Positions 1 through 61,966 of a stretch of DNA of 64,000 nt are shown here, piece after piece. Each line of letters opens with the position of its first letter. Position 1 is the stretch's first letter. The notes under the pieces were generated by a model that had not been told where the DNA came from, did not search any database, and worked only from the letters and a program-made list of their open reading frames with translations. The position numbers and the translations under genes are program-made. The DNA comes from Promethearchaeota archaeon. Lineage in GTDB: Archaea; Asgardarchaeota; Lokiarchaeia; Sigyniarchaeales; SOKP01. The stretch spans positions 250,810-314,809 of the forward strand of contig JAHPZA010000003.1 of the NCBI GenBank assembly GCA_019058445.1, written 5' to 3'.

Positions 1-2397
1 GGAATTCCAATTGTTGTTATTATCTTCCATGTATATCACATAGGGTTTGATACCCGCAGTCGTGGGGGTCCACGAATAATTTCGCCACATGTCCGTGCCG
101 GGTATATTGTCCATGGTATAATTCACTCCTCCGATTTCGATTAAGACCTGATTAATCCCTGAAGGATCAGTCACATTGATTGTTATGATCTCAGTATTTC
201 CCAATTCTAACGGATCTGCACTTTCACTCAAATCCGAATAGGTTGGAGGTGTATTATCTGCGATTTGCTGGAATTCTGCTCCAATAGAGTAAAAAGAGTT
301 AAGTTCATGTTGGTTATTGTATTCGGTGGCTATCCAATCAGCCGATCGACCAATATTAGAGATACGGGCTTCATCTATAATTCCTGTAAAATTATAGTCA
401 CTATCACCAAGACCATGTCTTCCAATCTCTAATGTATCTCCTAAGGCATAATTAAATGAAGTTGTATTGGTATTTGTTTCCTTATTAACTCCATCAATAA
501 ATAAAAACATACCAGATGCATTTTGACCAGCAACTACATAATGAAATTCATTATCAATGACATCTACGGTATCTGGTGCCATATTTAACCAAGTAGTTCC
601 GCTAATATATTTAAAAAAGCAAATTCTGCCATTTGGCCAAACTCTTATGGCATAATTATCTCCCCTAGTTACAATATCACCACTGTGAGAAATAGAATCA
701 TTTACTTTTATCCAAGCAGAAATAGTCAATTCGTCCTCGGGATCACAATTTGCCGGACTTGAAATAGTAATGTAATCATCATCTCCAGAACAATTTACTG
801 CTCCATCAATTTTTCCAGTTGCGTTAGTAGAGCCTCCTCCACCATCTTCGAAATTATAAGGTGTACCATCGTTATTGTTAGCAGTAGAATCTTCATGACT
901 TCCTGAAGTTCCATCGCTTGGCATCTCATCTAAATGCCATACAGCACCATAATTACTATCCCAAACTTCATATGGATTTTGTTGTGAATTCATAGTTGAA
1001 TTTCCATAATACATAGTGATATTAGTATCAGTAGAGGTGGATAACGAGGGGATTCGAACCCATGCCACTAATTGAGCATATGTACCATTATAATCTTGGT
1101 CAAATAATTCTATTTCGTGATCTAACCAAGTAGTACCATTGGTAAATGCAATATCATCGCCATCTGGTTGTACGTCATTCCGTAAGTCGGAATCAAAAAT
1201 AGAAATTAGCACAGGAAAATTAATAAGATCACTTGATCCAGAGACTTTAGTATGGTCAATTGTTATAACTTTATAACACATAAAGTCATTAAATGTAGGC
1301 ATATCTAGTTTTTCTTCAATACCAAGGGATAAGCTAGGTTCTGATGAAACTAATAATCTAATCTTAAGATCATCAAAATATGAGGTGGAATCTGAAGTAT
1401 AGGTCATTAATCCAATCTGTGCTGCACTTAGATGATCACTATCAGTAGCACTATTTTTTAATGTTCCATTTAAGTATACCTTATAGTCGGAACCTAAAGC
1501 ATCAATTCTTAAATCATACCATTGATCATCAACTAATAAACCTTCTCCACCAGATGTCTCATCAATTAGAGATGGAGAATCATCGGTCCATTTACCAATC
1601 GCACATTCATAGTCCCAAAATCCAATTCCAGCAGTATAAAAATTAGCTCCATTAGAATGTCGGAACATTACTCCTGCTCCAAAATTTCCCCCTGCATTTT
1701 TCACACGTACTTCTATCGATGCATTTTCAACAGTATACGAATTTAATAAACTTCTGCCATCAATTACGAATAAATTTTCTCGGTATTCATTGTTCACAAC
1801 GGACCATGTACCATTAACTACTGTCCAACCTTCAGCATCTCCATTTGATTGAGTAAAATCATCATAATAGTCATAAATGTTATTTTTATTAATTGAAGGG
1901 TTATTTGCTTCTTCTTTTCCATAATAAAGATAATAATTCGTATCAATTTTGCTAGAATCTATTGATGCTTGCGTTTTAAACCAAATTCGTGTATCTTGGG
2001 TATTAAAATTTGTTTCATTGATGCGATCCAATTCTATCCATTTATCTTTGGATGAGTCAAACCATACAATGCTAAGATCATTCCCATCAGTTCTTAATTT
2101 CCCAGAAGAAATTAAATTAGCAGTATCTACAGATATATTCACAGAATATCCTTTTGGAAGTGAATCTATATGATTATTAGTAATGTTTATTGGTTTTCGG
2201 AATTGATATGATTTTTTCCACCAGCTGTTAGATGATGATGAAGAGTGAATGATTGAAGTTGGTTCATCAATATCCTTATTGAATTCCTCATTACTCTCAT
2301 TAATTTTAATATTATTACTTTTAATAGAAAGTATTAGTATTAAACCGATTAAAAAAAAAAAAAGAAATAATCTACTCTCTTTTCTATTAATTCTCAA
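1..2397 (-). CDS. Secreted/surface DUF2341 + ConA/LamG-like + Ig-like repeat protein, copy 1 (3' end runs off the window)
   Basis: Absent from the ORF track because it has no stop in the window. Manual translation from TTG at 2397 (GAGG upstream): MRINRKESRLFLFFFLIGLILILSIK...WWKKSYQFRKPINITNN...CYKVITIDHTKVSGSSDLINFPV...MEDNNNNWNS. The frame is consistent at both ends and in the segments checked. Clear paralogue of 5428..10386. Confidence 0.88.
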   Translation of the reverse strand, partial: MRINRKESRLFLFFFLIGLILILSIKSNNIKINESNEEFNKDIDEPTSIIHSSSSSNSWWKKSYQFRKPINITNNHIDSLPKGYSVNISVDTANLISSGKLRTDGNDLSIVWFDSSKDKWIELDRINETNFNTQDTRIWFKTQASIDSSKIDTNYYLYYGKEEANNPSINKNNIYDYYDDFTQSNGDAEGWTVVNGTWSVVNNEYRENLFVIDGRSLLNSYTVENASIEVRVKNAGGNFGAGVMFRHSNGANFYTAGIGFWDYECAIGKWTDDSPSLIDETSGGEGLLVDDQWYDLRIDALGSDYKVYLNGTLKNSATDSDHLSAAQIGLMTYTSDSTSYFDDLKIRLLVSSEPSLSLGIEEKLDMPTFNDFMCYKVITIDHTKVSGSSDLINFPVLISIFDSDLRNDVQPDGDDIAFTNGTTWLDHEIELFDQDYNGTYAQLVAWVRIPSLSTSTDTNITMYYGNSTMNSQQNPYEVWDSNYGAVWHLDEMPSDGTSGSHEDSTANNNDGTPYNFEDGGGGSTNATGKIDGAVNCSGDDDYITISSPANCDPEDELTISAWIKVNDSISHSGDIVTRGDNYAIRVWPNGRICFFKYISGTTWLNMAPDTVDVIDNEFHYVVAGQNASGMFLFIDGVNKETNTNTTSFNYALGDTLEIGRHGLGDSDYNFTGIIDEARISNIGRSADWIATEYNNQHELNSFYSIGAEFQQIADNTPPTYSDLSESADPLELGNTEIITINVTDPSGINQVLIEIGGVNYTMDNIPGTDMWRNYSWTPTTAGIKPYVIYMEDNNNNWNS
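2351..2363. repeat. A13 homopolymer (T13 on coding strand) in the N-terminal hydrophobic segment of the surface protein gene
   Basis: taaaccgatt aaaaaaaaaa aaag; encodes LFFFL in frame. Confidence 0.9.
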
Positions 2398-2876
2398 CCC
2401 TAAAACCTCGTAAATTTTATTGGTTTTCTCTTTTATTTTACAAATTTGGAAAACTCTATTTAAATAAATAAAAAATTTTATTTATAAATGAATTAGTTTA
2501 GCCCAAAAAGTCATGTGAAAATAAAGATTATCTTTTAATCATTAATTTTTTTGAAAATATTAAAGATAAAAATTTAGCATTTGATTATTAAAACGAATTG
2601 AGTAAGGAAAAATTGAGAGAAAAGATCAACTGAATCCTTTTTATACATTTTTATAAAATCTTAATAATTCCAGAGAGAGAGTACTTAAGAGGAAACATAA
2701 TTCGAGACAAGGAACCAGAATAATATACCTTAAGGTGCTAGAGATTTATAACATTATATAAAGAATTAATATATTTTATCTATTGGCATCTGCTTATATT
2801 TAAATAATTAATATAACATTAGTAATATTAATGGAATCACAATTATTTCATAGTATCAATTAAATTTTTATCAGTT

Positions 2877-5345
2877 TTGACAGTAAATAAAAATCAGCTC
2901 CTTACTGAATTGTTTAATAATTTTTTAGAAATTGATAAACAGATAGAAGCAATCATAGTTTCCGATGAAGAAGGATTTGTTATTGCTGGGGAAAAAAGAA
3001 AAGATGTTGATATGGAATTGGTTTCTTTTTTAACCGCAGTTGTCAACCCAATCATAGAACGTATGCGGAATGAATTTTCTTTTAAAAGATTTGGCACAGC
3101 AAGTTTCGATACAGATAAAAATCGTTTACTTTTTATTTCTATAGATGAAATAACTACTTTAAGTGTTGTTTTAGAAAGTGTGGCTTCGATCGATAAATTA
3201 GCTCCATATACATATTTTCTTGCCGAAAAAATTGCACAAATTCTTAATGTCAATGAGGGTGATTTAATACAATTAAATATTCCTGATTTTGAATACGAAG
3301 TGGAATCTTATAAAAGTTCCAATAGATTGAAAAACCAAATATATCAGAGTAGATTAGATCACGGAGGTACCTATCGCTTTAAATTTATAATAATCGGTGA
3401 TCACGAAGTTGGGAAGACTTCAATAATTCGAAGGTTTGTAGAAAATAAATTCTTAGCAGATTATCGTACTACTATAGGTCTTAATATATTATCACATGAT
3501 TTTGAAGCTTTTGGAAATGATGTCAGTTTATTCCTTTGGGACATAGGCGCACAGGAATACTTCAAAAGATATAGAAAAACCTATTATGGAGGAGCTCAAG
3601 CAGCATTCATAGTATTTGACCTGACGGCTCGAGAAACATTTGATAATGTCATAAATTGGTATAATGAACTTATGGAATTTATTGAAAATAAGGAATTACC
3701 AATTATAATAGTGGGAAATAAAACTGATTTGTATGAACAAAGAATAATTACTTTTGAAGAGGGTGCGAATCTCGCGAGTGAATTATCTGAGGTATCTGAT
3801 TATTCAATTAAGTCGGGATTATCTGAATTCTCTGATCTATCAGATTTATCTGAAGAAATAAAAACAAAAATTCCATATATAGAAACAAGTGCTTTAACGG
3901 GAGATCATGTTATAGATGCTTTTAATTTAATATGTTATCATTTCATAATAAGAAGCAAGGAAATAGAAGAAGTAAGATTAGATAACGAGATAATAAGTGA
4001 AATCAATTCAATCTTAGACAATATCGGATCTTTAAATTTATCTTTCATAACTAAGGATTCATTATGGAGCCCTGGTTTACAAATTCTAACTGAAATAAAA
4101 CAATTGGGAGAATATTTAAAATATAAAGATACCAAGAAAGAAAAAATATACCAATATACAAACGGCTTAATCATAAAGAATTATCTGTACAACTCTTTTA
4201 AAATTTCTGACTCTGATGGAGTTTTATGTTTATTTGATGCGAGAGAGAAAGATCATATTGACCCAAAATGGAGGGAAATAGTAATTAAAATCTTAAATGA
4301 AATTGAAATTGATAGAGTTGTGTTTATTGGAATTAGGATATCTCAAAAGACGGATTGGTCACTACTGAAAGAAGAACTTGATGTACATAATCATGTAAAA
4401 GACAAAAGTTTATCGTATTCATTTTTTAAAATCGAGGATGATTACAGAATGCTTATACACGAGGAACTCGTAGTCATGCTAAATTTTATTAAACAACGTT
4501 TATTTACAATCAAATTAGAAGAAAAGGCTGTAAGCGCAGTTAAAGTTGAAGCTAATGAAGTAATAACAGAAAAGGAGGCAGAAATTAAATCACAGCACTT
4601 AAGAAGTTTTAAAATGAAAGAAGAATTTGAGAGCGATAGTAATACTGCCGAAATTAAGAATGAAGAATCACTACCAAATAATTCAATAAAAGAGCCTCAA
4701 ATTAAAGTAAGTGGAACTGATAGTCAAATTGAATACTTAAAGAATGAAATTATTAAATACGAAAAGAAAGGAAAGAAAGGTAAAAAATTAAAAGAATTGT
4801 TAAAAGATCTCGGCCGTGCCTATACTCTAAAAGGTGAATATGATAATGCAATAGACGTGTTAAAGAAATCATTAGAAATAGACTCGAAATTTGCAGTTGC
4901 TTGGAATATCTTAGGTGCCGATTATTTCGCTAAATGTGACTATAGTCAAGCGATCGATGCGTTCCTACATCTAGTAAAACTTGAACCAAATAACCATTCT
5001 GCATGGTATAATCTTGGTCGTGTCTACACCATAAGGAGTGAATATGACAATGCAATAAAAGCGTTAAGGAAAGCACTAGAAATCGATTCGAACTTTGCGA
5101 TCGCTTGGAATGTCATGGGTGCCGCTTATTATGGCAAAGGGATCTATAATAAAGCTATAAATTCGTTCCAGCAATTTTTAAAGCTTGAACCGAATGATCC
5201 TGCGGCTTGGTATAACTTAGCTGAATGCTTTTTTTCTACGGAATATTATAAAGATGCTCTTGATGCTTGTAATCGCAGTTTGGAAATTGAGATTAATTTT
5301 GAAGCGGCATTAAAGCTCCAGGAAAGAATATTAGATAATTTATAA
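2877..5345 (+). CDS. Roadblock/LC7 + Rab-like small GTPase + degenerate GTPase-like domain + 5 TPR fusion protein, copy 1
   Basis: N-terminal IEAIIVSDEEGFVIA roadblock signature; G1 GDHEVGKTS, G2 YRTTIG, G3 WDIGAQ, G4 NKTD, G5 ETSAL; C-terminal 34-aa TPR repeats (WYNLGRVY, WNVMGAAY). Confidence 0.9.
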   Translation: MTVNKNQLLTELFNNFLEIDKQIEAIIVSDEEGFVIAGEKRKDVDMELVSFLTAVVNPIIERMRNEFSFKRFGTASFDTDKNRLLFISIDEITTLSVVLESVASIDKLAPYTYFLAEKIAQILNVNEGDLIQLNIPDFEYEVESYKSSNRLKNQIYQSRLDHGGTYRFKFIIIGDHEVGKTSIIRRFVENKFLADYRTTIGLNILSHDFEAFGNDVSLFLWDIGAQEYFKRYRKTYYGGAQAAFIVFDLTARETFDNVINWYNELMEFIENKELPIIIVGNKTDLYEQRIITFEEGANLASELSEVSDYSIKSGLSEFSDLSDLSEEIKTKIPYIETSALTGDHVIDAFNLICYHFIIRSKEIEEVRLDNEIISEINSILDNIGSLNLSFITKDSLWSPGLQILTEIKQLGEYLKYKDTKKEKIYQYTNGLIIKNYLYNSFKISDSDGVLCLFDAREKDHIDPKWREIVIKILNEIEIDRVVFIGIRISQKTDWSLLKEELDVHNHVKDKSLSYSFFKIEDDYRMLIHEELVVMLNFIKQRLFTIKLEEKAVSAVKVEANEVITEKEAEIKSQHLRSFKMKEEFESDSNTAEIKNEESLPNNSIKEPQIKVSGTDSQIEYLKNEIIKYEKKGKKGKKLKELLKDLGRAYTLKGEYDNAIDVLKKSLEIDSKFAVAWNILGADYFAKCDYSQAIDAFLHLVKLEPNNHSAWYNLGRVYTIRSEYDNAIKALRKALEIDSNFAIAWNVMGAAYYGKGIYNKAINSFQQFLKLEPNDPAAWYNLAECFFSTEYYKDALDACNRSLEIEINFEAALKLQERILDNL

Positions 5346-5427
5346 AGATCTTGAATAAATTAAGAAATTATTATTTTAATAATAATAAAAAATTTAGAAA
5401 AAAATTTAATTAATTTTTATTTTAATC

Positions 5428-8400
5428 CTAATCAATTATACTTTCAATTGTTTCTAACTCTTTTTCTCTTGGTTCACCGCTTCTTTTTTTAATAAAAATG
5501 ATAATGCCAATTAGGGCTCCTACTGATCCTCCAATTATCACCAGAATCATCGGTAAAAAATCAGAATCTCCGCTGCTACTTGAACTTCCACCACCGCCAC
5601 CACCGCCACCGCCATCAGAGGGAGGAGGTGTAGCACTTATTACAAAAATTTGTTCGCTAACAGAGTTCCAATTATTATTGTAATCTTTCATGTATATGGT
5701 ATAAGTATGATAACCAGTAGTGGTGGGGGTCCAAGAATCGTTACACCACATATCAGTCCCAGCGATATTTCTCATGCTATAGTTGATACCTCCGATTTCA
5801 ATCAAGACTTGCTCGATCCCTGAAATATCTGTTATAAGTATTGTGATATTTTCTATATTCCCCAAAGTTAAAGGATCAGCACTTTCTTCTAGATCGGAAT
5901 ACTCCGGTTTTATTGTATCTTGAACTTGAATTATGCCACACGCAGTAGTGTTCCAATTATTTCCAATATCCCGTATGTGTATAGTATAATCATAATCACC
6001 TGTATCTAAAGGTGTCCAAGTATCATTTTGCCACTTGTTCGCGCTAATATTTACCATAGTGAAATTAATATTGATGGGTCCAAGTTCAATTTCAAAAATG
6101 ACTTCTAAAATACCCAAATCATCAAATACATCAATGGAAATAATTTCATTATTCCCTAACTCCAAAGGATTTTCATTAATTTGTAGATTTTCCCAAGTTG
6201 GAGGTGTTGTGTCAGAACTATCAATTACGCTAATTGAATCAGTAGTCAAATTCCAATTCCCATAAGTATCATTCATATATATGGTAAAGTAATATATTCC
6301 CGTCTCGGAAGGTGTCCATGTATCATTTTGCCAAGTATTTCCTCCAATATTGACCATTGTATAGTTTTTATTATCTATTTCAAATAGTACTTGCGATACA
6401 TCTGAGAGATCAGTGACATCAATCATAATAGTTTCTGTGCTATCTTTTTCAATTGTTTTAGTGTAGATTAGATTGAACCACATTGGACCTGTAGTATCCA
6501 CTACTTGAATTGAATCGCTAGTGGAATTCCAGTTATTATGTTTATCTTCAATATATATTGTAAAATTATGTTTTCCTGCAAAAGTCGGGGTCCAAGAATT
6601 ATTATGCCAAGTATTTCCACTCACATATTCCATGGAGTAATTAGTTAGTTCATTGATTTCAATTAAAACCTGGTTGATCCCGGACAGATCAGAAACATCA
6701 ATTGAAATGATCTCTGTATCTCCTAATTCTAAAAACTCTTCACTTTCTCCTAAATTAGACCAAGAAGGGGGAGTATTATCTTGTACGAAAATATCTCCAC
6801 TAGTAGAATTCCAATTATTATGGTTATCCTCCATATATATGGTATAATTATGTTTACCTGTAAATGCTGGTGTCCAAGAATTATTACACCAGGTATTTCC
6901 ACTCACATACTCCATGGTGTAATTATTTAATTCATTGATTTCAATTAAAATCTGGTTGATTCCGGACAGATCAAAAACATCAATTAATATGATCTCTGTA
7001 TCACCTAATTCTAATATATCTTCACTTTCAACTAAATTAGTCCAGGAAGGTGGTGTTGTATCAACCTTTTGAGTAGTTCCAAGAGAGTAAAAGTTATTGG
7101 GATCTTGTGTATTATTATATTTTGTAGCAATCCAACTGGATGAGCGAATAACATTTGAAATACGGATTTCATCTAATGTTCCATTCCATTCTTGCATTAT
7201 AGTTCCAGGACTCCTTCCAACACTAAGAATAGATGTTCCAGCGGAAGTAATTCCACTATAGGAATTGGAACTTTTTTCAACTCCATCAAGATAGAGCTTT
7301 AAATAACCATTAGTAGAATCAGCAACTGCAACAACATAATGCCATTGACCGTCTGTGATTAAACTTAAATCCATTGATACAGATTTTGTATTATCATCTA
7401 CAAAGAACAAGAAATTATTTTCATCTAACTTGCCTAGCCAATAATTTTGATTATCACTTGTACTTCCCCACTTTGCTAATACTATTTCAACATTAGTATC
7501 GGTATCATTAGTCTTAATCCAGCTCGATATTGTAATATCCGCATTAAGTTGCAAACTACTACTATGAGAAACATTAAAGTGCATTTCATTAGAATCAGAA
7601 CTTCCCTCAAATGAAAGACCCCCATCGATTTTTCCTTCTCCTTGATTTGAGGAATCTAAATTTCCTTGTGTTCCATCATTGTCATTTTCAGTGCTATCTT
7701 TAAATTGAGGGTCAGGATCTTCTGGATTTTCTTTTAAATGCCACACCCCTTTATAGTTGGTATCCCAGACTCCTGTAGGATTTTCTCGGGAATTCATATT
7801 AGTGATATTGCCAAAATACATTATAATATTTGTATCAATAGATGTGGAAAGAAAGGGAACTTTAACCCAAACAATCAATTTAGCTTCAGTATCACTATAA
7901 CTTTGGTTAAACTGTTCAATTTCATGATCTAACCATTTATTTCCTTGCGTAAAAGCAATATTATCTCCATCTGGTTGAGCATAATCATGTAAATCTTCAT
8001 CCAACATTGAGATTAATAATGGAAAGTTAATATGACATCCTGATCCGAATACTTTAGTATGATCGATTGTAATTACTTTATAATAGCGAAATTGATATAC
8101 ATTAGAGGGTTCATCATATATAGTTTTTTCTGTTCCAACATTATAGAAACTATTTGGATCATATTGATTGTTATATTCTGTAGCTATCCAATCCGCCGAA
8201 TGACCAATATTAGAGATACGGACTTCATCGATAATTCCTGAAAAATTATAGTTACCACTACCAGCACCATGTCTACTAATCTCTATGGTATCTCCTAAGA
8301 TATAATTAAATGAGGTAGTATTGGTATTTGTGCCTTTTCTAAAACCATCAACGAATAAAAACATACCAGATGCATTTTGACCTGCAACTATATAATGAAA

Positions 8401-39675: not shown

Positions 39676-41076
39676 ATGGAAAATAATAAAATTGAAATTT
39701 CTCATAGTAAAGCTAATATGGCGAGCTATGCGGTTGGTACATTTATTAATGAATTTATTATGATGGCCTTTTTTGCTTTCACTTTCTTTTTTTATGAGAG
39801 CGAGATTGGGTTAGATGTATGGCTGGTCGCGGCAGGTTACATTATATTTGCTATATGGAATGCGATAAATGACCCTATAGTAGGGTATTTAACTGATAAA
39901 CCATTTAGGTTCACAAAAAAATGGGGTCGGAGGTTTCCTTGGTTAATGTTAGGAGGATTTCCATGGGTTTTAAGTTATATACTTATTTTTATGCCTCCCG
40001 CTGTTGATCCAAATACTCAACAAGGAGCCTTGATTCTTCTAGTTTGGTTTATTATGTCTATGTGTTTATTTGATACATTTGCCTCTGTCTTTTGGGTTAA
40101 TTATGCAAGTCTATTTCCAGACAAATTTAGATCAACTGAAGAACGTCGAACGGCAAATGGATTATCGATTTTTATTGGCGTCTTTGGAACTGTAGCTGGT
40201 GCGATTGTCCCTCCATTATTTTTCACTTTTGGAGTATTATCATCGTATATAATTCAAGCAGGAGTAGTAGTTTTGATAGGCATTATTGCTATGGTATTGT
40301 TGATTCCTGGTGGTCGAGAAGAAGAGATTCTAATTGATCAATTTCTTGTAGCATATGAAGAAAAGATGGAGAGAGCTTCGTTTTTTAAAACTTTAAAAGG
40401 GGCTATGAAACATAGAAATTTTGTTGTTGTAATTATCGTCCTTTTTCTTTATCAAGTCATGATTAGGTCAATGACAGCTTCGATGCCTTTTATTGTAAGA
40501 TTTATTTTAAGTATGGATGCAAGTGTAATAACGGTAATAATGGGACTATTTATGATCTCAGTGCTTATCTGGACACCGATTTGGGTTAAAATTGCCCAGA
40601 AGAAAAATGATAATCGTAAGATAACTTTAATTACTGGAATACTATTAACTATTTTCACAATACCCTTAATATTTGTCAATACATTTTTAGGTTATATTTT
40701 AGCGATGATTTTATGGGGGACTGTGCTAGGCGGATTTTGGGTAACACAACTGTGGATTTTAAGTGATACTATTGATGAAACTGTTTGTAAAACAGAGAAA
40801 CGAGAAGAAGGAATTTATAATGGAATTAATCAATTTTTTAGTCGTATCGCTCTTGTAGTCCAAGCGCTTAGCTTCGCAATTGTGCATGAATTAACAGGGT
40901 TCGTTGAAGGTGCTGACACACAATCAGCTCAAGCAATAATAGGAATACATATTCATTTCGCTGTGGTCCCCTTCTTTGCTATGGTAATGGCTATGCTAAT
41001 CTTTTGGAAATGGTATGATCTTACTCCCGAAAGAGTAAAAGAAAATCAACAAAGGATGAAAGAGCTGTGTCTCTGA
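39676..41076 (+). CDS. GPH/MelB-like MFS transporter, paralogue 1
   Basis: WNAINDP..GYLTD..WGRRFPW; DTIDE..KREEGIY. Confidence 0.92.
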   Translation: MENNKIEISHSKANMASYAVGTFINEFIMMAFFAFTFFFYESEIGLDVWLVAAGYIIFAIWNAINDPIVGYLTDKPFRFTKKWGRRFPWLMLGGFPWVLSYILIFMPPAVDPNTQQGALILLVWFIMSMCLFDTFASVFWVNYASLFPDKFRSTEERRTANGLSIFIGVFGTVAGAIVPPLFFTFGVLSSYIIQAGVVVLIGIIAMVLLIPGGREEEILIDQFLVAYEEKMERASFFKTLKGAMKHRNFVVVIIVLFLYQVMIRSMTASMPFIVRFILSMDASVITVIMGLFMISVLIWTPIWVKIAQKKNDNRKITLITGILLTIFTIPLIFVNTFLGYILAMILWGTVLGGFWVTQLWILSDTIDETVCKTEKREEGIYNGINQFFSRIALVVQALSFAIVHELTGFVEGADTQSAQAIIGIHIHFAVVPFFAMVMAMLIFWKWYDLTPERVKENQQRMKELCL

Positions 41077-41104
41077 ATAATAAAAATTAAAGAATATAGA
41101 ATAA

Positions 41105-41171
41105 TTTATGAATTCTTACTCCAGAAAAAGCACAAGCGAATCAATTAAAGATAAAAGAGATGTGTATCTAA
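41105..41171 (+). pseudogene. Orphan 3' end of another GPH transporter paralogue
   Basis: 41115..41171 reads LTPEKAQANQLKIKEMCI*, matching the LTPERVKENQQRMKELCL* end of paralogue 1. Confidence 0.75.
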
Positions 41172-41254
41172 TTTTTTTTTAATTTTATTTTCATAATTGT
41201 TCTTCAAAAAGGATCCATATAGGATGAAATTTTGGACAAAACTATATATATTTC

Positions 41255-41272
41255 TTTAACTAATTAGTTAAA
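41255..41272. promoter_or_regulatory. Perfect 18-bp palindrome directly downstream of a TATA box (candidate operator)
   Basis: TTTAACTAATTAGTTAAA after CTATATATA, upstream of paralogue 2. Confidence 0.5.
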
Positions 41273-41317
41273 AATAAATTAGTTTTCGTTAAAATAATAA
41301 TCCTATAGGTTTTAAAT

Positions 41318-42709
41318 ATGGAGAATGAAGTAATTAAAATCCATCACTCAAGAAGAAGCATAGCTTCATATAGTTTTGCTGGATTTATCTGGGAATTTCT
41401 AGTCATGGCTTTTAGTGCTTATAGCTATTTCTATTATGAGACAGAGGTTGGATTAAATAGCTTACTTTGTGGTTTGGCATTTATCATTTATGCCATATGG
41501 AATGCAGTGAATGATCCCCTTATGGGTTATCTAACTGATCGCCCATTTAAATTTACGAAGAAATGGGGCCGACGTTTTCCTTGGTTGCTTATCGGGGGTT
41601 TCCCATGGATCATTAGCTATATCCTTATTTTTACTCCACCTGACGTGAACCCACAAGATGGCGCGTGGATTATATTTGCATGGTTTACAATTACCATTTG
41701 TTTATATGATACTTTTGCAACCTTATTTATGGTCAATTATGATGCTCTTTTTCCTGACAAATTCCGTTCAGATGAAGAACGTAGGATGGTCACTGGAACG
41801 CGTGTACCCATAGCTGTTTTTGGAACTGTTTTAGGAGCAGTCTTACCACCACTTTTTATAGAATTTGGAAATGAACAATCATATTTATTACAAGCTGGGT
41901 TTGTATTTTTGATATGTCTTATTGCTCTTTTTATTTCACTTCCTGGCACCCGCGAGGATCAGGTAAGAATTGATTCTTATCTTGAAAGTTGTGAAGAAAT
42001 TGAGAAAACCTCCTTTTTTAAAGAATTCAGGAGGGCTCTTAAACAAAAAGCCTTTGTAGCATACATTTTTCTTTACTTTTGCTATATGGTCCTGGTAAGA
42101 TCTATGACATCCTCAATCGCCTATTCAGTAAGATATATTTTAAAAATGGAAGCAAATGCAATCTCTTTAATCATGTTAGCTTTTCTCGTAGGTGTATTAA
42201 TTTCAATTCCAATATGGTATAAACTGGCAAATAGGATAAATAACAACCGTAAAGTAATGATAATATCAGGAACCCTTGTTGGACTTTTTGTATCACCCTT
42301 AATTATATTAGAAGATTATACTCTTATTATTATTACTTTGTTCATATGGGGTTTAGCTGAGGGAGGCTTTTGGCTCATGTTATCACCAGTTTTTGCAGAT
42401 ACTATCGATGAATCAGTAGTAGAAACGGGTGAACGTAGAGAAGGATTATATAATGGATTTTTAGCTTTTTTTGCTCGACTGGCTATAGCAGCTCAAGCAA
42501 TCAGTTTTGCTGTAACACATACATTAACGGGATTCGTAGAAGGTGCCGATACCCAATCTGATTTGGCAGTATGGGGAATTCACATTCACCTTGCTTTGAT
42601 CCCTATGATTTTCATGTTAATAGGGATATTTATCTTTTGGAAATTTTATGATCTCACCCCTAAACGTGTTCAAGAAGTCCAGCTTAAACTAAAGCAATTA
42701 AAACTCTAA
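41318..42709 (+). CDS. GPH/MelB-like MFS transporter, paralogue 2
   Basis: WNAVNDP..WGRRFPW; DTIDE..ERREGLY. Confidence 0.92.
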   Translation: MENEVIKIHHSRRSIASYSFAGFIWEFLVMAFSAYSYFYYETEVGLNSLLCGLAFIIYAIWNAVNDPLMGYLTDRPFKFTKKWGRRFPWLLIGGFPWIISYILIFTPPDVNPQDGAWIIFAWFTITICLYDTFATLFMVNYDALFPDKFRSDEERRMVTGTRVPIAVFGTVLGAVLPPLFIEFGNEQSYLLQAGFVFLICLIALFISLPGTREDQVRIDSYLESCEEIEKTSFFKEFRRALKQKAFVAYIFLYFCYMVLVRSMTSSIAYSVRYILKMEANAISLIMLAFLVGVLISIPIWYKLANRINNNRKVMIISGTLVGLFVSPLIILEDYTLIIITLFIWGLAEGGFWLMLSPVFADTIDESVVETGERREGLYNGFLAFFARLAIAAQAISFAVTHTLTGFVEGADTQSDLAVWGIHIHLALIPMIFMLIGIFIFWKFYDLTPKRVQEVQLKLKQLKL

Positions 42710-42753
42710 ATTAATTAATTTTACATTTTTTTCAGATAACGTTTAGTAAAGCA

Positions 42754-42790
42754 AAATATATAAATTGATTCAACAAATATTGAAAAAACG
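42754..42790 (+). promoter_or_regulatory. TATA box plus AACAAATATTGAAA element shared with the paralogue 4 promoter
   Basis: aaaatatataaattgattcaacaaatattgaaa versus aaaatatataaatgcttttaacaaatattgaaa at about 44278-44310. Confidence 0.6.
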
Positions 42791-42826
42791 TAATCTATAA
42801 TATATAAAACAAATTTGGTAATGTTT

Positions 42827-44221
42827 ATGGAAAATAAAGACACAGAAATATTACATTCGAAAAAAGAAATGGCTTCATACGGTTTCGGGAAGATAATCAT
42901 GGAACTTTTAAATATGGCATTTGGAGCATATGTGTTTTTCTATTATGAAAGTGAATTGGGATTAGATGTGTGGTTAATAGCTTTAGGTATCATCATATAT
43001 GCAATTTGGAATTCCATCAATGATCCCTTTATCGGTTATTTAGTAGATCGCCCCTTTAAGTTCACGAAAAAATGGGGTAGACGATTTCCATGGGTATTAA
43101 TTGGAGGAGTGCCATGGATCTTTTTTTACTTACTTCTTTTCATACCACCGGACGTTAATCCTCAAGAAGGAGCTTGGATCCTCTTTGCTTGGCTTGTAAT
43201 CATAGCGTGTTTATATGATTTATTTGGATCACTTTATCTTGTAAATTTTACTTCGATTTTTCCCGATAAATTCCGTACAGAAAGTGAAAGAAGAGATGCA
43301 GGTGGAATTGGCACCCTGGTTGGGACTTTTGGCGTAGTTTTGGGGGCTATTGTACCTCCAATGTTCATAATTTTTGGGAATAGAACATCATATGCATTGC
43401 AAGGAGTAGTAATTATTATTATATGTTTAATAGCTTTAGGATTAACTATTCCAGGGATACGGGAAGATCAATATCGAATTGATTGCTATTTAGAGGTGTG
43501 CGAAGAGGGTTTTGAAAAAGAATCGTTTTTTAAGACACTTAAATACTGTATAAAACAAAAGAATTTCTTGGCCTATATTATCGCATTTGTGTTTTATTCA
43601 ACTATGACGACAATGATGATAGCATCCATTCCATTTCTCGTACGATTCGTATTTAAGATGGAAGCGGGAGCGGTGACTTTAATAATGGTAGGTTTTCTCC
43701 TTGGATCATTTTGTTCCATTCCTTTATGGATTAAAATTGCTCATAAAACAAATGATGACCGGAAAACAATCATTATAACCGCGTTTTTTATGGCATTCGC
43801 TTTAATACCGATGATCTTTCTTAGAGACTATTATTTGTTCATTATTTCAGTTGCGATATGGGGTATAGGGCTAGGAGGTTTTTGGGCCATGCAAAATCCA
43901 GTTTTATCTAATGCGATTGATGAAAATGTAATTAATACCGGTAAAAGAGAAGAAGGGATATATGGTGGTATTCAAACCTTATTTTCACGTTTGGCAATTG
44001 CTATCCAAGCGATTTGTTTTGCAATTGTGCATACCCTCACTGGGTTTGTAGAAGGAGCTAACACACAATCTGAATTAGCAGTATGGGGTATAATTATTCA
44101 TATGGCTTTGCTTCCAATGATTTTCATGTTCATAGGATCTTTCATACTTTTAAAATTCTATAATTTAACACCTGAAAAAGTAGCAATTAATAAAACTAAA
44201 TTAGCTGAAATGGGACTATAA
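42827..44221 (+). CDS. GPH/MelB-like MFS transporter, paralogue 3
   Basis: WNSINDP..WGRRFPW. Start set at MENKD by comparison with the paralogues (ORF track 42815). Confidence 0.9.
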   Translation: MENKDTEILHSKKEMASYGFGKIIMELLNMAFGAYVFFYYESELGLDVWLIALGIIIYAIWNSINDPFIGYLVDRPFKFTKKWGRRFPWVLIGGVPWIFFYLLLFIPPDVNPQEGAWILFAWLVIIACLYDLFGSLYLVNFTSIFPDKFRTESERRDAGGIGTLVGTFGVVLGAIVPPMFIIFGNRTSYALQGVVIIIICLIALGLTIPGIREDQYRIDCYLEVCEEGFEKESFFKTLKYCIKQKNFLAYIIAFVFYSTMTTMMIASIPFLVRFVFKMEAGAVTLIMVGFLLGSFCSIPLWIKIAHKTNDDRKTIIITAFFMAFALIPMIFLRDYYLFIISVAIWGIGLGGFWAMQNPVLSNAIDENVINTGKREEGIYGGIQTLFSRLAIAIQAICFAIVHTLTGFVEGANTQSELAVWGIIIHMALLPMIFMFIGSFILLKFYNLTPEKVAINKTKLAEMGL

Positions 44222-44351
44222 AGTGATTTTTAGCTCCATTAATTTTCTATTCTTTTTTTCATTATTTTTTTTTAAAAAAAATATATAAATGCTTTTAACA
44301 AATATTGAAAGAACATACTTTATTAAATTCAAAACCAATTTGGGAATGTTT

Positions 44352-45746
44352 ATGGAAAATAAAGACATGGAAATATTACATTCTAAAAAAGAAATGGCTT
44401 CATATGGGTTCGGTAAGTTTGTAAATGAATTTCTGAATATGGCATTCGGTGCTTTGGTCTTTTTCTATTACGAAACTGAACTGGGTCTTGATGTCTGGTT
44501 AACAGCATTTGGTTATATTATATTTGCTCTCTGGAATGCTTTTAATGATCCAATACTAGGCTATTTAACAGATCGCCCTTTTAAATTTACGAAGAAATGG
44601 GGAAGACGCTTTCCATGGGTTTTTATCGGAGGAGTGCCTTGGATACTTAGCTATATCTTACTTTTTACACCCCCTGATGTTGATCCTAAACAAGGTGCTT
44701 GGATCTTGTTCGCATGGCTCGTATTTTCAACTTGTTTATACGATACCTTTGCTTCTCTGTTTAATGTCTCTTTCTACGGGCTTTTTCCCGATAAATTTCG
44801 TGAAGATAAAGAACGTAGAACTGCTGCTGGAATAAGTACTTTAGTAGGGACTTTTGGCGTAGCTTTAGGGGGAATTTTACCACCGCTGTTTATCGTATTT
44901 GGAGACAGATCCTCATATGCGTTGCAATCGGGGATTGTTGTTATTACTTGTATAATAGCATTGGCATTAACAATTCCAGGGTGTAGGGAAGATCAATATC
45001 GAATTGATTGCTACTTAGAGAAGTGTGAAGAAGGATTTGACAAGGTGCCGTTTTTTAGTAACGTAAAATCATGCTTGAAACAAAAGAATTTCCTCGCGTA
45101 TCTCAGTCAATGGATCTTTTATCGAGCATTGGTTGTTATGATAATTGGCTCAATACCCTATCTCGTACGATTCGTATTAAAAATGGAAGCAAGCGCTGTG
45201 ACTTTAATAATGATTGGATTCCTTTTAGGCTCATTTTGTTCTATTCCAATATGGACTACAATTGCTCATAAAACCGACAATGATCGCAAAACATTCATTC
45301 TAGCAGCATTTCTTATGACAGTACTCTTAATTCCATTAATATTCATCGTTGATTATGTCTTAGTCATTATTTTTGTAGCAATCTGGGGATTTAGCCTTGG
45401 AGGGTATTGGCTCATGCAAGATCCTGTATTATCTGAAATTATCGATGAATCTGTCATTTTAACTGGAAGAAGAGAAGAGGGCATCTATAATGGGGTGGTG
45501 AACTTCTTCGGTCGTTTAGCACTTGTTATTCAGGCTGTCTGCTTCGCGATAGTTCATACTTTAACTGGATTTGTAGAAGGCGCTCCCTCACAAACCGCCA
45601 CAGCACAATTGGGAATTCAAATTCATTTCGCCTTACTGCCAATGATTTTTATGTTATTTGCAACCTTAATACTATGGAAATGGTATAACTTAACGCCTGA
45701 AAAAGTTGCTGAGAATAAAACAAAACTAGCTGAAATGGGTTTGTAA
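44352..45746 (+). CDS. GPH/MelB-like MFS transporter, paralogue 4
   Basis: WNAFNDP..WGRRFPW. Start set at MENKD; the ORF-track start 44289 lies in the promoter. Confidence 0.9.
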   Translation: MENKDMEILHSKKEMASYGFGKFVNEFLNMAFGALVFFYYETELGLDVWLTAFGYIIFALWNAFNDPILGYLTDRPFKFTKKWGRRFPWVFIGGVPWILSYILLFTPPDVDPKQGAWILFAWLVFSTCLYDTFASLFNVSFYGLFPDKFREDKERRTAAGISTLVGTFGVALGGILPPLFIVFGDRSSYALQSGIVVITCIIALALTIPGCREDQYRIDCYLEKCEEGFDKVPFFSNVKSCLKQKNFLAYLSQWIFYRALVVMIIGSIPYLVRFVLKMEASAVTLIMIGFLLGSFCSIPIWTTIAHKTDNDRKTFILAAFLMTVLLIPLIFIVDYVLVIIFVAIWGFSLGGYWLMQDPVLSEIIDESVILTGRREEGIYNGVVNFFGRLALVIQAVCFAIVHTLTGFVEGAPSQTATAQLGIQIHFALLPMIFMLFATLILWKWYNLTPEKVAENKTKLAEMGL

Positions 45747-45867
45747 GTTAAATTCAAAATTAAATATCAAATTATTTTTTTCTTTTATCTTTATTTCTGG
45801 ACAATTATTAATAATGCTTATGATTAATTAATTCTATAATAGTTCTCAAAAAAAAATTGTTATAGAG

Positions 45868-47067
45868 ATGAACGATTCAAATATTCTTAATCTAATAGAA
45901 GCGGAACGTATGTATAGCCATGTGTTGGAGATTGAAGGTTCAAGGCATCCTGTTGATGATTTTGAAAAATTAAATGAAGTAGCAGATTATATATCACTGG
46001 AATTTGAAAAGTATGGGTTAAGGGTAAATGAACATAAATTCAATGTTAAGGATTTAGATAACACATTTAGAAATATAGAAGGCAGTATTGGTGATTCGAA
46101 GAGTGCTGAATTTATACTTGGGGCTCATTATGATACAGTTCCTAATTGTCCGGGAGCAAATGACAATGCGTCTGGAGTTGCTGTTATGCTTGAAACTGCT
46201 AGAACTTTATCTCAGGTGGAAAGTTTAAGTAATATTCGATTTATAGGATTCAGTCTTGAAGAACCTAGCGCTGTTTTGCGAAATAAATATAGGGAGATCG
46301 CCCAGAGATATGGGGTGATGGATGATAACGATCACTATACATCTTATAGAACTCTAAAGCTGATAAAAAAGCACTCAGATCAATTAAGTATTGCACGTGG
46401 CTCGATTAAAACATACCCTGAAGCTTATTATGAAGTTACAGAAAATCTCAAGTCAAGTTTGACACAAGAGGAATATGATTTCTTTAATGAAATCGCCAAA
46501 ATTTACGAGGGAATAATGACCAGTTCTTGGGTGGGTAAGACTGCGATAATAGGAAGTAGTAGATGGATTAGAGATGCGTTAAAATCTAATAAAAAAATAT
46601 CAGGAGTAATATCAATAGATTCGGTGGGATATGCTTCTAAGAAAAGATACTCTCAACACTTCCCCAAAGGATTAAAAATGAAGATCTTTAAAACTCATAA
46701 TGTCAAGGAAAAGTATTTCATAGGGGACTTTATCTTTGTAATCAGTAATAGTAATTCCAACGAGCTAGCTGAAGTGTTTTGTTCTCAATGTCAAAAAGAC
46801 TCGATTAACCTTCCCTATGCTTGCTTTGAACCTTCAGTTACATTTGAAAAATTCTGTGTAAATTTGCCCTTTTTACTGGGTTCTGATCACGCGCCATTTT
46901 GGCGAGAGGGAATACCTGCCCTGGAATTAACGGATACTGCGAACCTTAGAGACCCATATGCTCATACATCAGCAGATACCATAAATAATCTTGATTTTGA
47001 TTTCATGAAGAAAGTCGGAAAAGCGGTTTGTATGACAGCAATAAATAGATGTCAAGAAACTTCTTAA
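45868..47067 (+). CDS. M28 family metallopeptidase
   Basis: GAHYDT, PGANDNASG, LEE, SIDSVG, GSDHAPF, HTSADT. Confidence 0.9.
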   Translation: MNDSNILNLIEAERMYSHVLEIEGSRHPVDDFEKLNEVADYISLEFEKYGLRVNEHKFNVKDLDNTFRNIEGSIGDSKSAEFILGAHYDTVPNCPGANDNASGVAVMLETARTLSQVESLSNIRFIGFSLEEPSAVLRNKYREIAQRYGVMDDNDHYTSYRTLKLIKKHSDQLSIARGSIKTYPEAYYEVTENLKSSLTQEEYDFFNEIAKIYEGIMTSSWVGKTAIIGSSRWIRDALKSNKKISGVISIDSVGYASKKRYSQHFPKGLKMKIFKTHNVKEKYFIGDFIFVISNSNSNELAEVFCSQCQKDSINLPYACFEPSVTFEKFCVNLPFLLGSDHAPFWREGIPALELTDTANLRDPYAHTSADTINNLDFDFMKKVGKAVCMTAINRCQETS

Positions 47068-47187
47068 AATCAAATTTCATATACTATATCTTCTATATTT
47101 TTTTAAAGATATCTATATAAATTTGATTAACTAATGTTTAAAATACATATCAAATTTTCATATGTAAATTTATGATGGTAATTAATT

Positions 47188-48579
47188 ATGGAAAAAAATA
47201 GTGAAGAAATTTTACATTCTAAGACAAGTATAGTTTCCTATGGATTCGGAAAATTTGTGTGGGAATTCTTAAACATGGCGTTTGGAGCGTTCGTATATTT
47301 TTATTATGAAAGTGAGTTAGGTTTAGCTTCATGGTTAACTGCTTTTGGATATATTATATTCGCGACTTGGAATGCGGTCAACGATCCTATTCTTGGATAT
47401 CTTATTGATCGTCCCTTTAAATTTACGAAAAAATGGGGGAGACGATTTCCATTTGTGTTTATAGGGGGAGTTCCGTGGATTATTACATATGTGTTGCTTT
47501 TTATACCTCCAGAGGGGGCTGGGATGTGGATTATTTTTGCGTGGCTGGTGATAACCACTTGTTTATACGACACTTTTGCTTCAATTTTCAATGTGAGTTT
47601 CTATGCGATTTTTCCGGATAAATTTCGTGCTATGGACGAGCGTAGGAGCGCAGCTGGAATCAGCACATTAGTTAGTACTTTTGGTGTGGCGTTAGGGGCA
47701 ATTATACCTCCATTATTTATCGTATTTGGTGATAGATCGACATATGCGATGCAATCAGGAGTCGTTCTTATTGTATGTTTGATTGCTTTAGCGTTGGCCA
47801 TTCCTGGAGCCCGAGAAGATCAATTCCGCATTGATTGTTATTTAGAGGCTTGTGAAAAAGGAGAAGAAAAGGCATCCTTCATGAAAACTCTAAGAGTATG
47901 TTTAAAACAGAAAAATTTTGTGGCGTTCATTTTTGCGTATATTTTTTATCGTTCATTAGTGATGATGATTGTTGCTTCTCTCCCATACATGGTAAGATTT
48001 GTATTTCTAATGGAAGCAAGCTCATTGACTCTAATAATGGCAGCGTTTCTCATAGGATCCTTTGTTTCCATCCCTATATGGATTAAATTCGCTCAAAAGA
48101 CTAATGATAACCGGAAAACCTATATGTATGCTGCGTTCCTTATGACGATACTTACTGGAATTCTTTTCTTTGTCCAAGATTATTATTTAGCGGTTCTCGT
48201 GATTTTGTTCTGGGGAATGGGGCTCGGAGGATTTTGGGTTATGATTGATCCCACTCTTAGTGATGTAATTGATGAAGCAGTTATTACTACTGAAAAAAGA
48301 GAGGAAGGAGTTTATATTGGCATTCAGACATTTTTTAGCCGCATGGCAATGATAGTGCAGGCGGTTTGCTTTGCAATTGTCCATATTTTAACAGGATTTG
48401 TTGAAGGTGCAGGACCAGAAGCTCAACCCGAGTCTGCGATATTGGGGATTAGAATGCATTTTGCGTTACTCCCAATGGTTTTTATATTTATAGCAGGTTT
48501 GATCCTATGGAAATTTTATAAATTGACACCTGACCAAGTAGCGATTAATAAAGCAAAATTAGCCGAAATGGGATTATAG
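47188..48579 (+). CDS. GPH/MelB-like MFS transporter, paralogue 5
   Basis: WNAVNDP..WGRRFPF; DVIDE..KREEGVY. Confidence 0.92.
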   Translation: MEKNSEEILHSKTSIVSYGFGKFVWEFLNMAFGAFVYFYYESELGLASWLTAFGYIIFATWNAVNDPILGYLIDRPFKFTKKWGRRFPFVFIGGVPWIITYVLLFIPPEGAGMWIIFAWLVITTCLYDTFASIFNVSFYAIFPDKFRAMDERRSAAGISTLVSTFGVALGAIIPPLFIVFGDRSTYAMQSGVVLIVCLIALALAIPGAREDQFRIDCYLEACEKGEEKASFMKTLRVCLKQKNFVAFIFAYIFYRSLVMMIVASLPYMVRFVFLMEASSLTLIMAAFLIGSFVSIPIWIKFAQKTNDNRKTYMYAAFLMTILTGILFFVQDYYLAVLVILFWGMGLGGFWVMIDPTLSDVIDEAVITTEKREEGVYIGIQTFFSRMAMIVQAVCFAIVHILTGFVEGAGPEAQPESAILGIRMHFALLPMVFIFIAGLILWKFYKLTPDQVAINKAKLAEMGL

Positions 48580-61752: not shown

Positions 61753-61820
61753 TTTCTAATACCTCTTATAGGTTTTTCCTATTTTTTTCATTAAATTTGT
61801 TATTTTCTAGTTTATTTTTC

Positions 61821-61836
61821 AGATAAATAAATATTT
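61821..61836 (-). promoter_or_regulatory. 16-bp promoter element AAATATTTATTTATCT, identical upstream of paralogues 7 and 8
   Basis: agataaataaatattt at 61821..61836 and 63427..63442, each 66-69 bp from the start codon; GAGGT RBS in both. Confidence 0.6.
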
Positions 61837-61966
61837 ATAACTAACTCCTTTTTTTCAGAAAATCTTGTATAGTTAAACTTGTATAACATTGCAAAATTTA
61901 AGGTTTTATTAAATGAAATGATTCGAAATGAAAAAAGGAAAAAAAAGAGGAATTAATTAATTTCTT

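Follow-up and report, generated by a model that had tools for sequence, protein, structure and literature searches.

A duplicated divergent gene pair of a Lokiarchaeial genome, encoding lectin-like surface proteins and Rab-like GTPases with roadblock and TPR domains

Small GTPases regulated by roadblock and longin domains are hallmark eukaryote-like proteins of the Asgard archaea. Fusions of a roadblock domain to a GTPase have already been published for Asgard archaea (Tran et al. 2024, PMC10933270), as have longins resembling GTPase-activating proteins (GAPs; PMC12290439). Passages of the former paper describe, for Loki-type archaea, proteins with an N-terminal roadblock and a Ras-superfamily G domain, some with additional domains of unknown function; neither a fusion to tetratricopeptide repeats (TPRs) nor a linkage to receptors is found in those passages. 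Full-text literature searches found no report that ties DUF2341/LamG receptors of Asgard archaea to GTPases or to longins. Here we describe a duplicated pair of divergent genes, hereafter the cassette, which lies at one end of a 64,000-nucleotide (nt) stretch of DNA (the window) from a Promethearchaeota archaeon of the order Sigyniarchaeales (GCA_019058445.1, contig JAHPZA010000003.1, positions 250,810–314,809). Each cassette encodes a giant lectin-like surface protein and, head-to-head with it, a roadblock-GTPase of the published general design which in addition carries a TPR array.

Six-frame listing of open reading frames (ORFs) combined with Pfam scans revealed four large genes within positions 1–13406. 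They form two homologous divergent pairs, each composed of a surface gene on the minus strand and a roadblock-GTPase-TPR gene on the plus strand, and the twice-repeated head-to-head arrangement claimed in an initial annotation of this DNA was thereby confirmed. Cassette 1 consists of surface gene 1 (1–2397, minus strand; the N-terminal 799 codons, open at the window start), intergenic region 1 (2398–2876; 479 nt, with a conserved surface-gene promoter block) and GTPase 1 (2877–5345, plus strand; 822 amino acids [aa]). Cassette 2 consists of surface gene 2 (5428–10386, minus strand; 1652 aa), intergenic region 2 (10387–10715; 329 nt) and GTPase 2 (10716–13406, plus strand; 896 aa counted from a GTG codon). 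The probable start of GTPase 2 is the ATG at 10722, which would give a protein of 894 aa like those of its relatives. The two GTPase proteins align from end to end with 56% identity across 809 aa, and their genes are 70% identical across 2190 nt. Between the surface genes, the DUF2341-LamG module of gene 1 and the middle module of gene 2 show 72% identity over 342 aa and 77% over 1012 nt at the nucleotide level, which is above the rest of both genes, and this excess is compatible with module exchange. Homology between the copies extends to both genes and to the promoter block, and GTPase 1 branches before the protein of the related contig L026 (see below); the pair was accordingly duplicated as one unit, long ago.

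Both GTPases possess, in the same order, a roadblock domain, a Rab-like G domain, a degenerate second G domain, a coiled coil and TPRs. In GTPase 2, all on the plus strand, the Roadblock/LC7-like domain occupies residues 11–135 (10746–11120), the Rab-like G domain residues 170–365 (11223–11810), the degenerate G domain, which lacks a P-loop, residues 385–560 (11868–12395) and, after a coiled-coil linker of ~80 aa, the TPR array residues 640–896 (12633–13403). Membership of the G domains in the Ras superfamily is evident from their matches to PF00071 [Ras/Roc; 7e-43 and 9e-40] and from their G motifs. G1 (GDHEVGKT), G4 (NKxD, which is NKKD in GTPase 2) and G5 (ETSA) are canonical, GTPase 2 having a Ser/Asp-rich insert ahead of G5; G3 departs from DxxGQ and is DIGAQ throughout the family, and residues D230, G232, A233 and Q234 are invariant in all 33 aligned members of the family. 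The switch II sequence WDIGAQ lies at 11400–11417 and 3537–3554, and both copies have Ala at the position of the DxxG glycine. The best fold matches of the predicted G domain structure are Rab6, Rab8 and Rab11.

For the N-terminal domain, which had been labelled roadblock, the Pfam Robl_LC7 match is below threshold (E 0.02; it scored 15 bits, the cut-off being 23), yet the profile of 22 family members matches a Roadblock/LC7 protein [3.5e-4, PDB 7yh1] and the AlphaFold model has an alpha-beta-beta-alpha-beta-beta-beta-alpha topology at a predicted local distance difference test score (pLDDT) of about 70–85. On profile and topology we retain the label. The domain of ~175 residues between the G domain and the TPRs gave a profile match to Rho6/Rnd1 over beta4–beta5 [2.8e-5], and because it has no P-loop we regard it as a degenerate G domain. 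The TPRs were recognized by TPR_1, TPR_2 and TPR_8 [1e-32 to 1e-42], with at least five repeats; 6–8 TPRs follow the coiled coil, GTPase 1 having two repeats fewer than GTPase 2.

Surface protein 2 consists of a signal peptide, three modules of DUF2341 plus Laminin_G_3, five repeats of ~95 aa, a Gly/Ser linker, a single transmembrane helix (residues 1614–1632) and a tail of 20 aa. Surface gene 1 specifies a signal peptide or anchor, a LamG-like 3keto-disac_hyd domain, one DUF2341 plus Laminin_G_3 module and the first ~95-aa repeat. It is incomplete, being cut within the repeat region by the start of the window and by a run of N, a scaffold gap at about 250700–250809 of the contig (C3 of the genome, G000). 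The C-terminal 485 aa are encoded beyond this gap (C3:249237-250694, minus strand) and comprise repeats, a transmembrane helix and the tail ...SDKEIEIIEKLIGNR. A frameshift in surface gene 1, which might be suspected from its two ORFs of 849 and 485 aa, was ruled out, as the run of N separates them. Both proteins belong with the DUF2341 plus Laminin_G_3 surface proteins on the basis of matches above cut-off [PF13385 8e-58 and PF10102 7e-18 for gene 2; 3e-20 and 3e-12 for gene 1], an N-terminal hydrophobic segment and one C-terminal transmembrane helix. The initial annotation had called the ~95-aa repeats Ig; they are without significant Pfam match here, and that name is presumptive.

Relatives of GTPase 2 that share the TPR fusion were found at 89, 87, 86, 83 and 67% identity. 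In a tree from a quick maximum-likelihood search all TPR-fused forms constitute one clade (SH-aLRT branch support 93), which is nested in a class of TPR-less orthologues of ~545 aa, and GTPase 1 branches before the L026 protein and before the GTPase 2 group. A single TPR-fused clade in which GTPase 1 branches first indicates that the fusion arose once and that the duplication is older than the split of the lineages compared. Database searches for an orthologue of GTPase 1 returned nothing closer than the GTPase 2 clade (45–51% identity in the C-terminal part), and when genome contigs were scanned with the junction of pseudo-G domain, coiled coil and TPR, the other species representatives yielded no protein with the TPR fusion.

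On each of the five contigs where the flanks of a TPR-fused relative can be read (67–89% identity), the gene divergent from it belongs to a giant surface protein of type I, and the flank on the other side is variable. L025 (83%) carries only one cassette, an orthologue of cassette 2, set between ribonucleotide reductase and the downstream genes that are also found in the window. A loss of cassette 1 from L025 through recombination of two surface genes was ruled out by its gene-2-type tail and by full-length collinearity with surface gene 2. L052 (89%) has the start of a surface gene upstream and a gene for an AMP-binding enzyme downstream. In L051 (87%) the promoter of a surface gene lies upstream and another surface gene follows convergently downstream, and because of the latter tandem cassettes are probably present there as well. 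In L026 (67%) and L053 (69%) the divergent partner is a transmembrane-anchored heparinase-II/III-like protein of 1743 aa, and their flanks differ; in L026 a DUF2341/LamG protein of 910 aa is encoded one gene further. Orthologous receptor/roadblock-GTPase pairs are known from L025, L026, L053 and L052, in addition to the two of the window. Downstream of the L026 TPR-fused GTPase, at L026:12345-17762, we also noted two more small-GTPase genes (428 and 260 aa), followed, about 5 kb downstream, by a gene the product of which has an N-terminus 60% identical to that of surface protein 1; GTPase and surface genes are more densely clustered there.

The cytoplasmic tails of the receptors are of particular interest. 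That of surface protein 2 (5428–5490 with the stop codon, minus strand; KKRSGEPREKELETIESIID) corresponds to KKRGSKPRDKELETIESIID in the L025 orthologue and to KKRTKKPRDKDLDTIESIIN in L026. The consensus ...PR[DE]K[ED]L[ED]TIESII[DN] is almost unchanged among orthologues the ectodomains of which are only 48–56% identical, and the GTPases 67–83%. The tail of surface protein 1 is a more diverged form of the same sequence. The relationships among the receptor tails match the GTPase tree, although with four pairs only this is an observation rather than a test. Among the transmembrane proteins of the genome none besides the cassette receptors ends in such a tail. A tail that is conserved while its ectodomain evolves fast points to a cytoplasmic partner, and the TPR array encoded next door is the obvious candidate. 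A complex prediction for the TPR array with a peptide of transmembrane helix plus tail scored 0.02; it was made without controls and weighs neither for nor against binding.

Residues 1–560 of GTPase 2 have orthologues in all 24 of the 24 genomes of the same family, each of 519–564 aa and lacking TPRs. Those of the ~520-aa class have ThiC, alone or together with ThiN, to one side and an isocitrate/isopropylmalate dehydrogenase gene to the other, and are divergent from a gene for a RING-finger plus TPR protein of ~190 aa [zf-RING_2, E about 1e-7]. The RING-TPR partner is kept in most genomes of the family and was seen in L006, L008–L013, L016, L018 and L019 (relatives G001–G024). This pairing may link the GTPase of the ~520-aa class to a ubiquitin-ligase-like protein. 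Since BLAST matched no part of the RING-TPR protein to the fused TPR array, no fusion-based link can be claimed for this class.

Genes of the ~545-aa class are divergent from one for a coiled-coil protein of 650–843 aa and convergent with one for a protein of 415–420 aa. The coiled-coil partners (L027:5235-7442, L029:1243-3450, L005:6481-8595, L007:463-2415 and L014:4237-6768, all on the minus strand) are rich in coiled coil, have no transmembrane helix and belong to no significant Pfam family. A 744-aa gene upstream of the window was considered as a counterpart of the 735-aa partner of this class and rejected, as it encodes a C-terminal portion of ribonucleotide reductase. This gene part lies beyond the C-terminal part of surface gene 1, and its L025 orthologue is annotated with an intein (LAGLIDADG).

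Genes that combine DUF2341 with Laminin_G_3 are confined to two loci of the genome, that of the window and C9:430337-471657 on another contig, which contains five tandem receptor genes of about 2650 aa. Four of the nine roadblock-GTPase fusion genes in the genome border these two loci; at the C9 array one finds a divergent 549-aa G-roadblock-G protein and, two genes from the other end, a 318-aa roadblock-GTPase. Given about 4000 genes, this placement is far from random, it being understood that copies derived from duplication are not independent events. C9-type receptors of L055, L056, L058 and L059 are likewise flanked by roadblock-GTPases.

The C9 receptors continue for about 450 cytoplasmic residues after the transmembrane helix, without Pfam match. 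A domain of ~365 aa in this region belongs to a large, mostly stand-alone family [422 cluster representatives at E <= 0.001], the model of which (56-row alignment, pLDDT 95.3) predicts a longin domain and two winged helices; we refer to it as longin-WH. Its best structure matches are MON1A-CCZ1, GATOR1 NPRL2/3, the SEA complex, Fuzzy-Inturned, BLOC-3 and SNARE longins, all of them weak, with a template-modelling (TM) score of about 0.2 for the whole multi-domain model. The matched structures are platforms with GEF or GAP function towards GTPases. The 415–420-aa convergent neighbour of the 545-aa class proved to be a member of the longin-WH family (hhalign probability 99.9%, E 6.5e-34). It is convergent with the roadblock-GTPase of that class, which is sister to the TPR-fused clade, in six of six contexts.

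At 13 loci in 9 genomes of 8 genera, a longin-WH gene of 359–392 aa directly follows, on the same strand, the gene for a type-I receptor with DUF2341/LamG (or PA14). The receptor and longin-WH genes of relatives abut or overlap by 0–1 nt (L043:1051-6257 and L048:81-10737, both minus strand, L036, L034, L035, L046 and others), and on C9 the two are one ORF. The receptor tail ahead of the junction bears the motif …LGDKW..LGLSL.DILG…, which is found also in the fused proteins. LamG-type receptor, longin-WH protein and roadblock-GTPase are a set which recurs in pairwise neighbourhoods or fusions across this family of archaea. A longin-WH profile (hmmsearch) gave no match in positions 1–16000 of the window nor in the L025 and L026 cassettes; elsewhere in the genome, stand-alone longin-WH genes are located at C9:532985, C9:246647, C6:1217076, C4:192282 and C10:662811. 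The cassette GTPase descends from a class for which a longin-WH neighbour is the rule, and has acquired a TPR array. Within this set, the cassette of the window is the adaptor-less, TPR-fused variant and the only combination without a longin-WH member.

The initial annotation had also claimed a conserved promoter spacing. This was upheld for TATAAATGAAT, which precedes the surface-gene starts by 86 and 90 nt (at 2483–2493 in intergenic region 1), and failed for the "TATA-like box" upstream of the GTPase genes, which in DNA of 27% GC is indistinguishable from background. The number of copies of TATAAATGAAT is by itself not significant, at least two copies being present in 12 of 100 shuffles. 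The sequence lies within a block conserved across all four or five homologous intergenic regions, including the L025 and L026 spacers, and the shared spacing can thus be ascribed to common descent of the spacer. Intergenic region 2 shows 82% mean column identity across four genomes and contains the TATA block of the surface gene at 10466–10486 and, at about 10638, a TTTATATAA box for the GTPase gene. Two palindromes found there are candidate operators: TACAATTTTGTA at 10430–10441, between the TATA block and the surface-gene start, and TACAATATTGTA at 10659–10670, between the TATA-like box and the GTPase-gene start. The palindrome TACAAT(A/T)TTGTA has only 8 sites in the 4.6-Mb genome, two of them in the cassette 2 spacer, and both of these are kept in L025, L051 and L052. 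Such paired sites are candidates for joint control of the two genes of cassette 2.

The homology of the cassettes, the domain architectures, the conserved neighbourhoods and the fusions are the observations for which one has to account. We put the probability that each cassette is a functional two-gene unit, in which receptor and GTPase are functionally coupled, at about one half; such coupling, with the TPR array taking over the linking role in this lineage, is the most economical reading of the recurring three-gene set. The initial annotation had proposed a cognate pair of receptor or adhesin and transducer. The pairing is retained in the TPR-fused relatives with readable flanks and the tails are nearly unchanged, both of which speak for that proposal, whereas the neighbourhood survey showed, in 24 of 24 family genomes, no LamG neighbour for the TPR-less proteins most closely orthologous to the cassette GTPases. 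By the refuting condition that the initial annotation itself had set, this result counts in part against the proposal. Several further observations weigh against coupling. In those 24 genomes no DUF2341 match lies within 40 kb of the TPR-less orthologues, which adjoin other genes instead (ThiC, ThiN, RING-TPR, dehydrogenase, or a 735-aa coiled-coil protein). The TPR-fused examples all derive from one narrow clade, represented by few related assemblies, and L025 is syntenic throughout, so that part of the conservation is simple descent. The immediate partner in L026 and L053 is not a LamG protein, and cassette 1, in its intergenic region, lacks the two palindromes. As regards the wider set, GTPase genes are absent from about 8 kb around the 13 receptor plus longin-WH loci seen in relatives, and L056, L058 and L059 share flanks with C9 and represent one orthologous locus rather than independent cases.

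Much of this would be expected if the genes were merely inherited neighbours without functional coupling, a GTPase gene having landed beside a variable surface gene, undergone segmental duplication and been kept there by close kinship. We consider this account improbable on balance, and still a serious contender. The DUF2341/LamG linkage is absent for both the 520- and the 545-aa classes, collinearity between L025 and the window extends beyond 20 kb, the TPR-fused forms that were found come from a few closely related assemblies, none of the other species representatives having yielded one, and with small-GTPase genes numbering in the dozens per Asgard genome (82 matches in this one) some adjacency is to be expected. 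It fits poorly with the persistence of the surface-protein partner while the other flank changes in L026, L053, L051 and L052, with the same association at a second, non-orthologous locus (C9), with the longin-WH family bridging receptor and GTPase genes through fusion and neighbourhood, and with a conserved tail on an ectodomain that evolves fast. Chance duplication of neighbouring but unrelated genes, the alternative given in the initial annotation, is weakened by the kept divergent partner, the C9 locus and the longin-WH linkage. If the genes are coupled, the coupling might run inside-out, the GTPase-TPR protein sorting, positioning or turning over its cognate surface protein, for example to protrusions or to a pole. 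The G domain is Rab-like by fold, and related Rab-like roadblock-GTPases of the family have non-receptor partners, which would fit a general positioning role. TPR proteins commonly serve as cargo or peptide adaptors, a textbook function that would suit such a role. Longin and roadblock partners are moreover trafficking-type GTPase regulators (PMC10933270; PMC12290439). Internal membrane traffic has, however, not been shown for these organisms (review, PMC12290439), and nothing in the sequence separates this direction from outside-in signalling, so that sensing cannot be told from positioning; as a specific alternative we regard it as unlikely. The coupling might also be indirect, a longin-WH adaptor encoded elsewhere joining receptor tail and GTPase while the TPR array binds something else. 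The genome does possess stand-alone longin-WH genes and the sister 545-aa class is always paired with one, but the ~85-aa tail motif (…LGDKW..LGLSL.DILG…) found ahead of longin-WH in other receptors is missing from those of the cassette, and the loss of the longin-WH neighbour in the TPR-fused clade suggests replacement rather than reuse; an adaptor of this kind strikes us as quite improbable.

Returning to a coupled two-gene unit, we infer contact between the proteins, a direction of information flow and an output along the following lines. The giant, fast-evolving, lectin-like type-I surface protein would act as adhesin or receptor, and its partner would be a cytoplasmic Rab-like GTPase switch carrying its own regulatory roadblock, degenerate G domain and TPR adaptor. 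The short, conserved, acidic and hydrophobic receptor tail would recruit the GTPase protein to the membrane, most simply via the TPR array. The roadblock and pseudo-G domains could set the nucleotide state in cis, and this state of the G domain would link what happens at the surface protein with a cytoplasmic output, in one direction or the other. A more specific version, to our minds rather unlikely as it stands, is that the TPR array replaced the longin-WH adaptor in one Lokiarchaeial lineage and that the GTPase docks directly on the ...DKELETIESIID tail of its own receptor, giving, among the prokaryotes most closely related to eukaryotes, a minimal, duplicated, co-diverging two-component switch from receptor to small GTPase with cassette-specific tail/TPR pairs. 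A lectin-like membrane protein that shares both its inheritance and its duplication with one particular Rab-like GTPase, together with the linkage of such receptors elsewhere to an NPRL2/Mon1-like longin module, provides concrete partners for work at the bench. If the coupling is real, receptor-coupled small-GTPase signalling or cargo positioning would be older than eukaryotes; otherwise the cassette amounts to no more than a duplication specific to this lineage, in a region of variable surface proteins.

Downstream of GTPase 2, two paralogous membrane proteins of ~300 aa (303 and 292 aa) with weak hexapeptide-repeat matches are encoded at 13624–15426 (plus strand). This pair is kept in L025 (67–74% identity), and L026 has, at the matching position, a 302-aa gene without BLAST similarity to them. 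The possibility that the 303- and 292-aa genes are counterparts of the 275–289-aa genes beside C9-type receptors was ruled out, there being no similarity. Further along the window, an array of paralogous ~465-aa genes is found at 39676–48579 (plus strand) and 60358–63361 (minus strand). The three that were scanned specify MFS_2 sugar-type transporters, and ORFs of like size surround them. A gene for a beta-lactamase/Pab87-like peptidase (48644–50104) lies between the groups of ~465-aa paralogues, and one for a PAS histidine kinase lies at 56744–58621.

Compared with the published roadblock-GTPase fusions of Asgard archaea, the cassette proteins add a degenerate G domain, a coiled coil, 6–8 TPRs and the pairing with a surface gene. 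In Myxococcus, MglA (GTPase), MglB (roadblock GAP) and SgmX (TPR effector) have the same domain types and jointly control the polar surface machinery (PMC9481161). There the module comprises three separate proteins with an MglA-type GTPase and no LamG receptor, whereas in the cassette the domains are in one chain and the G domain is Rab-like. The analogy to this system drawn in the initial annotation is one of domain content and not of membership, since the G domain matches Rab best and no search made gave specific similarity to MglA, MglB or SgmX.

Rag-Ragulator with its longin GAPs (GATOR1 NPRL2/3 and FLCN-FNIP) and Mon1-Ccz1 similarly combine small GTPases with roadblock and longin platforms. 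They differ in that the G domain of the window is Rab-like, in that the roadblock is N-terminal here and C-terminal in the Rag GTPases, and in that the cassette is without a longin gene. TPR adaptors that dock peptides include Hop/Sti1, which accepts EEVD tails, and PEX5, which accepts PTS1. The resemblance to these, by way of analogy only, lies in a TPR array beside a protein that ends in a short conserved acidic/hydrophobic peptide. The longin-WH-tailed LamG receptors of C9 resemble those of the window in their DUF2341, Laminin_G_3 and beta-sandwich repeats, in their type-I topology and in having roadblock-GTPase neighbours. The window's receptors differ in their tail of 20–25 aa without longin-WH, and their partner GTPase in carrying a TPR array and a pseudo-G domain.

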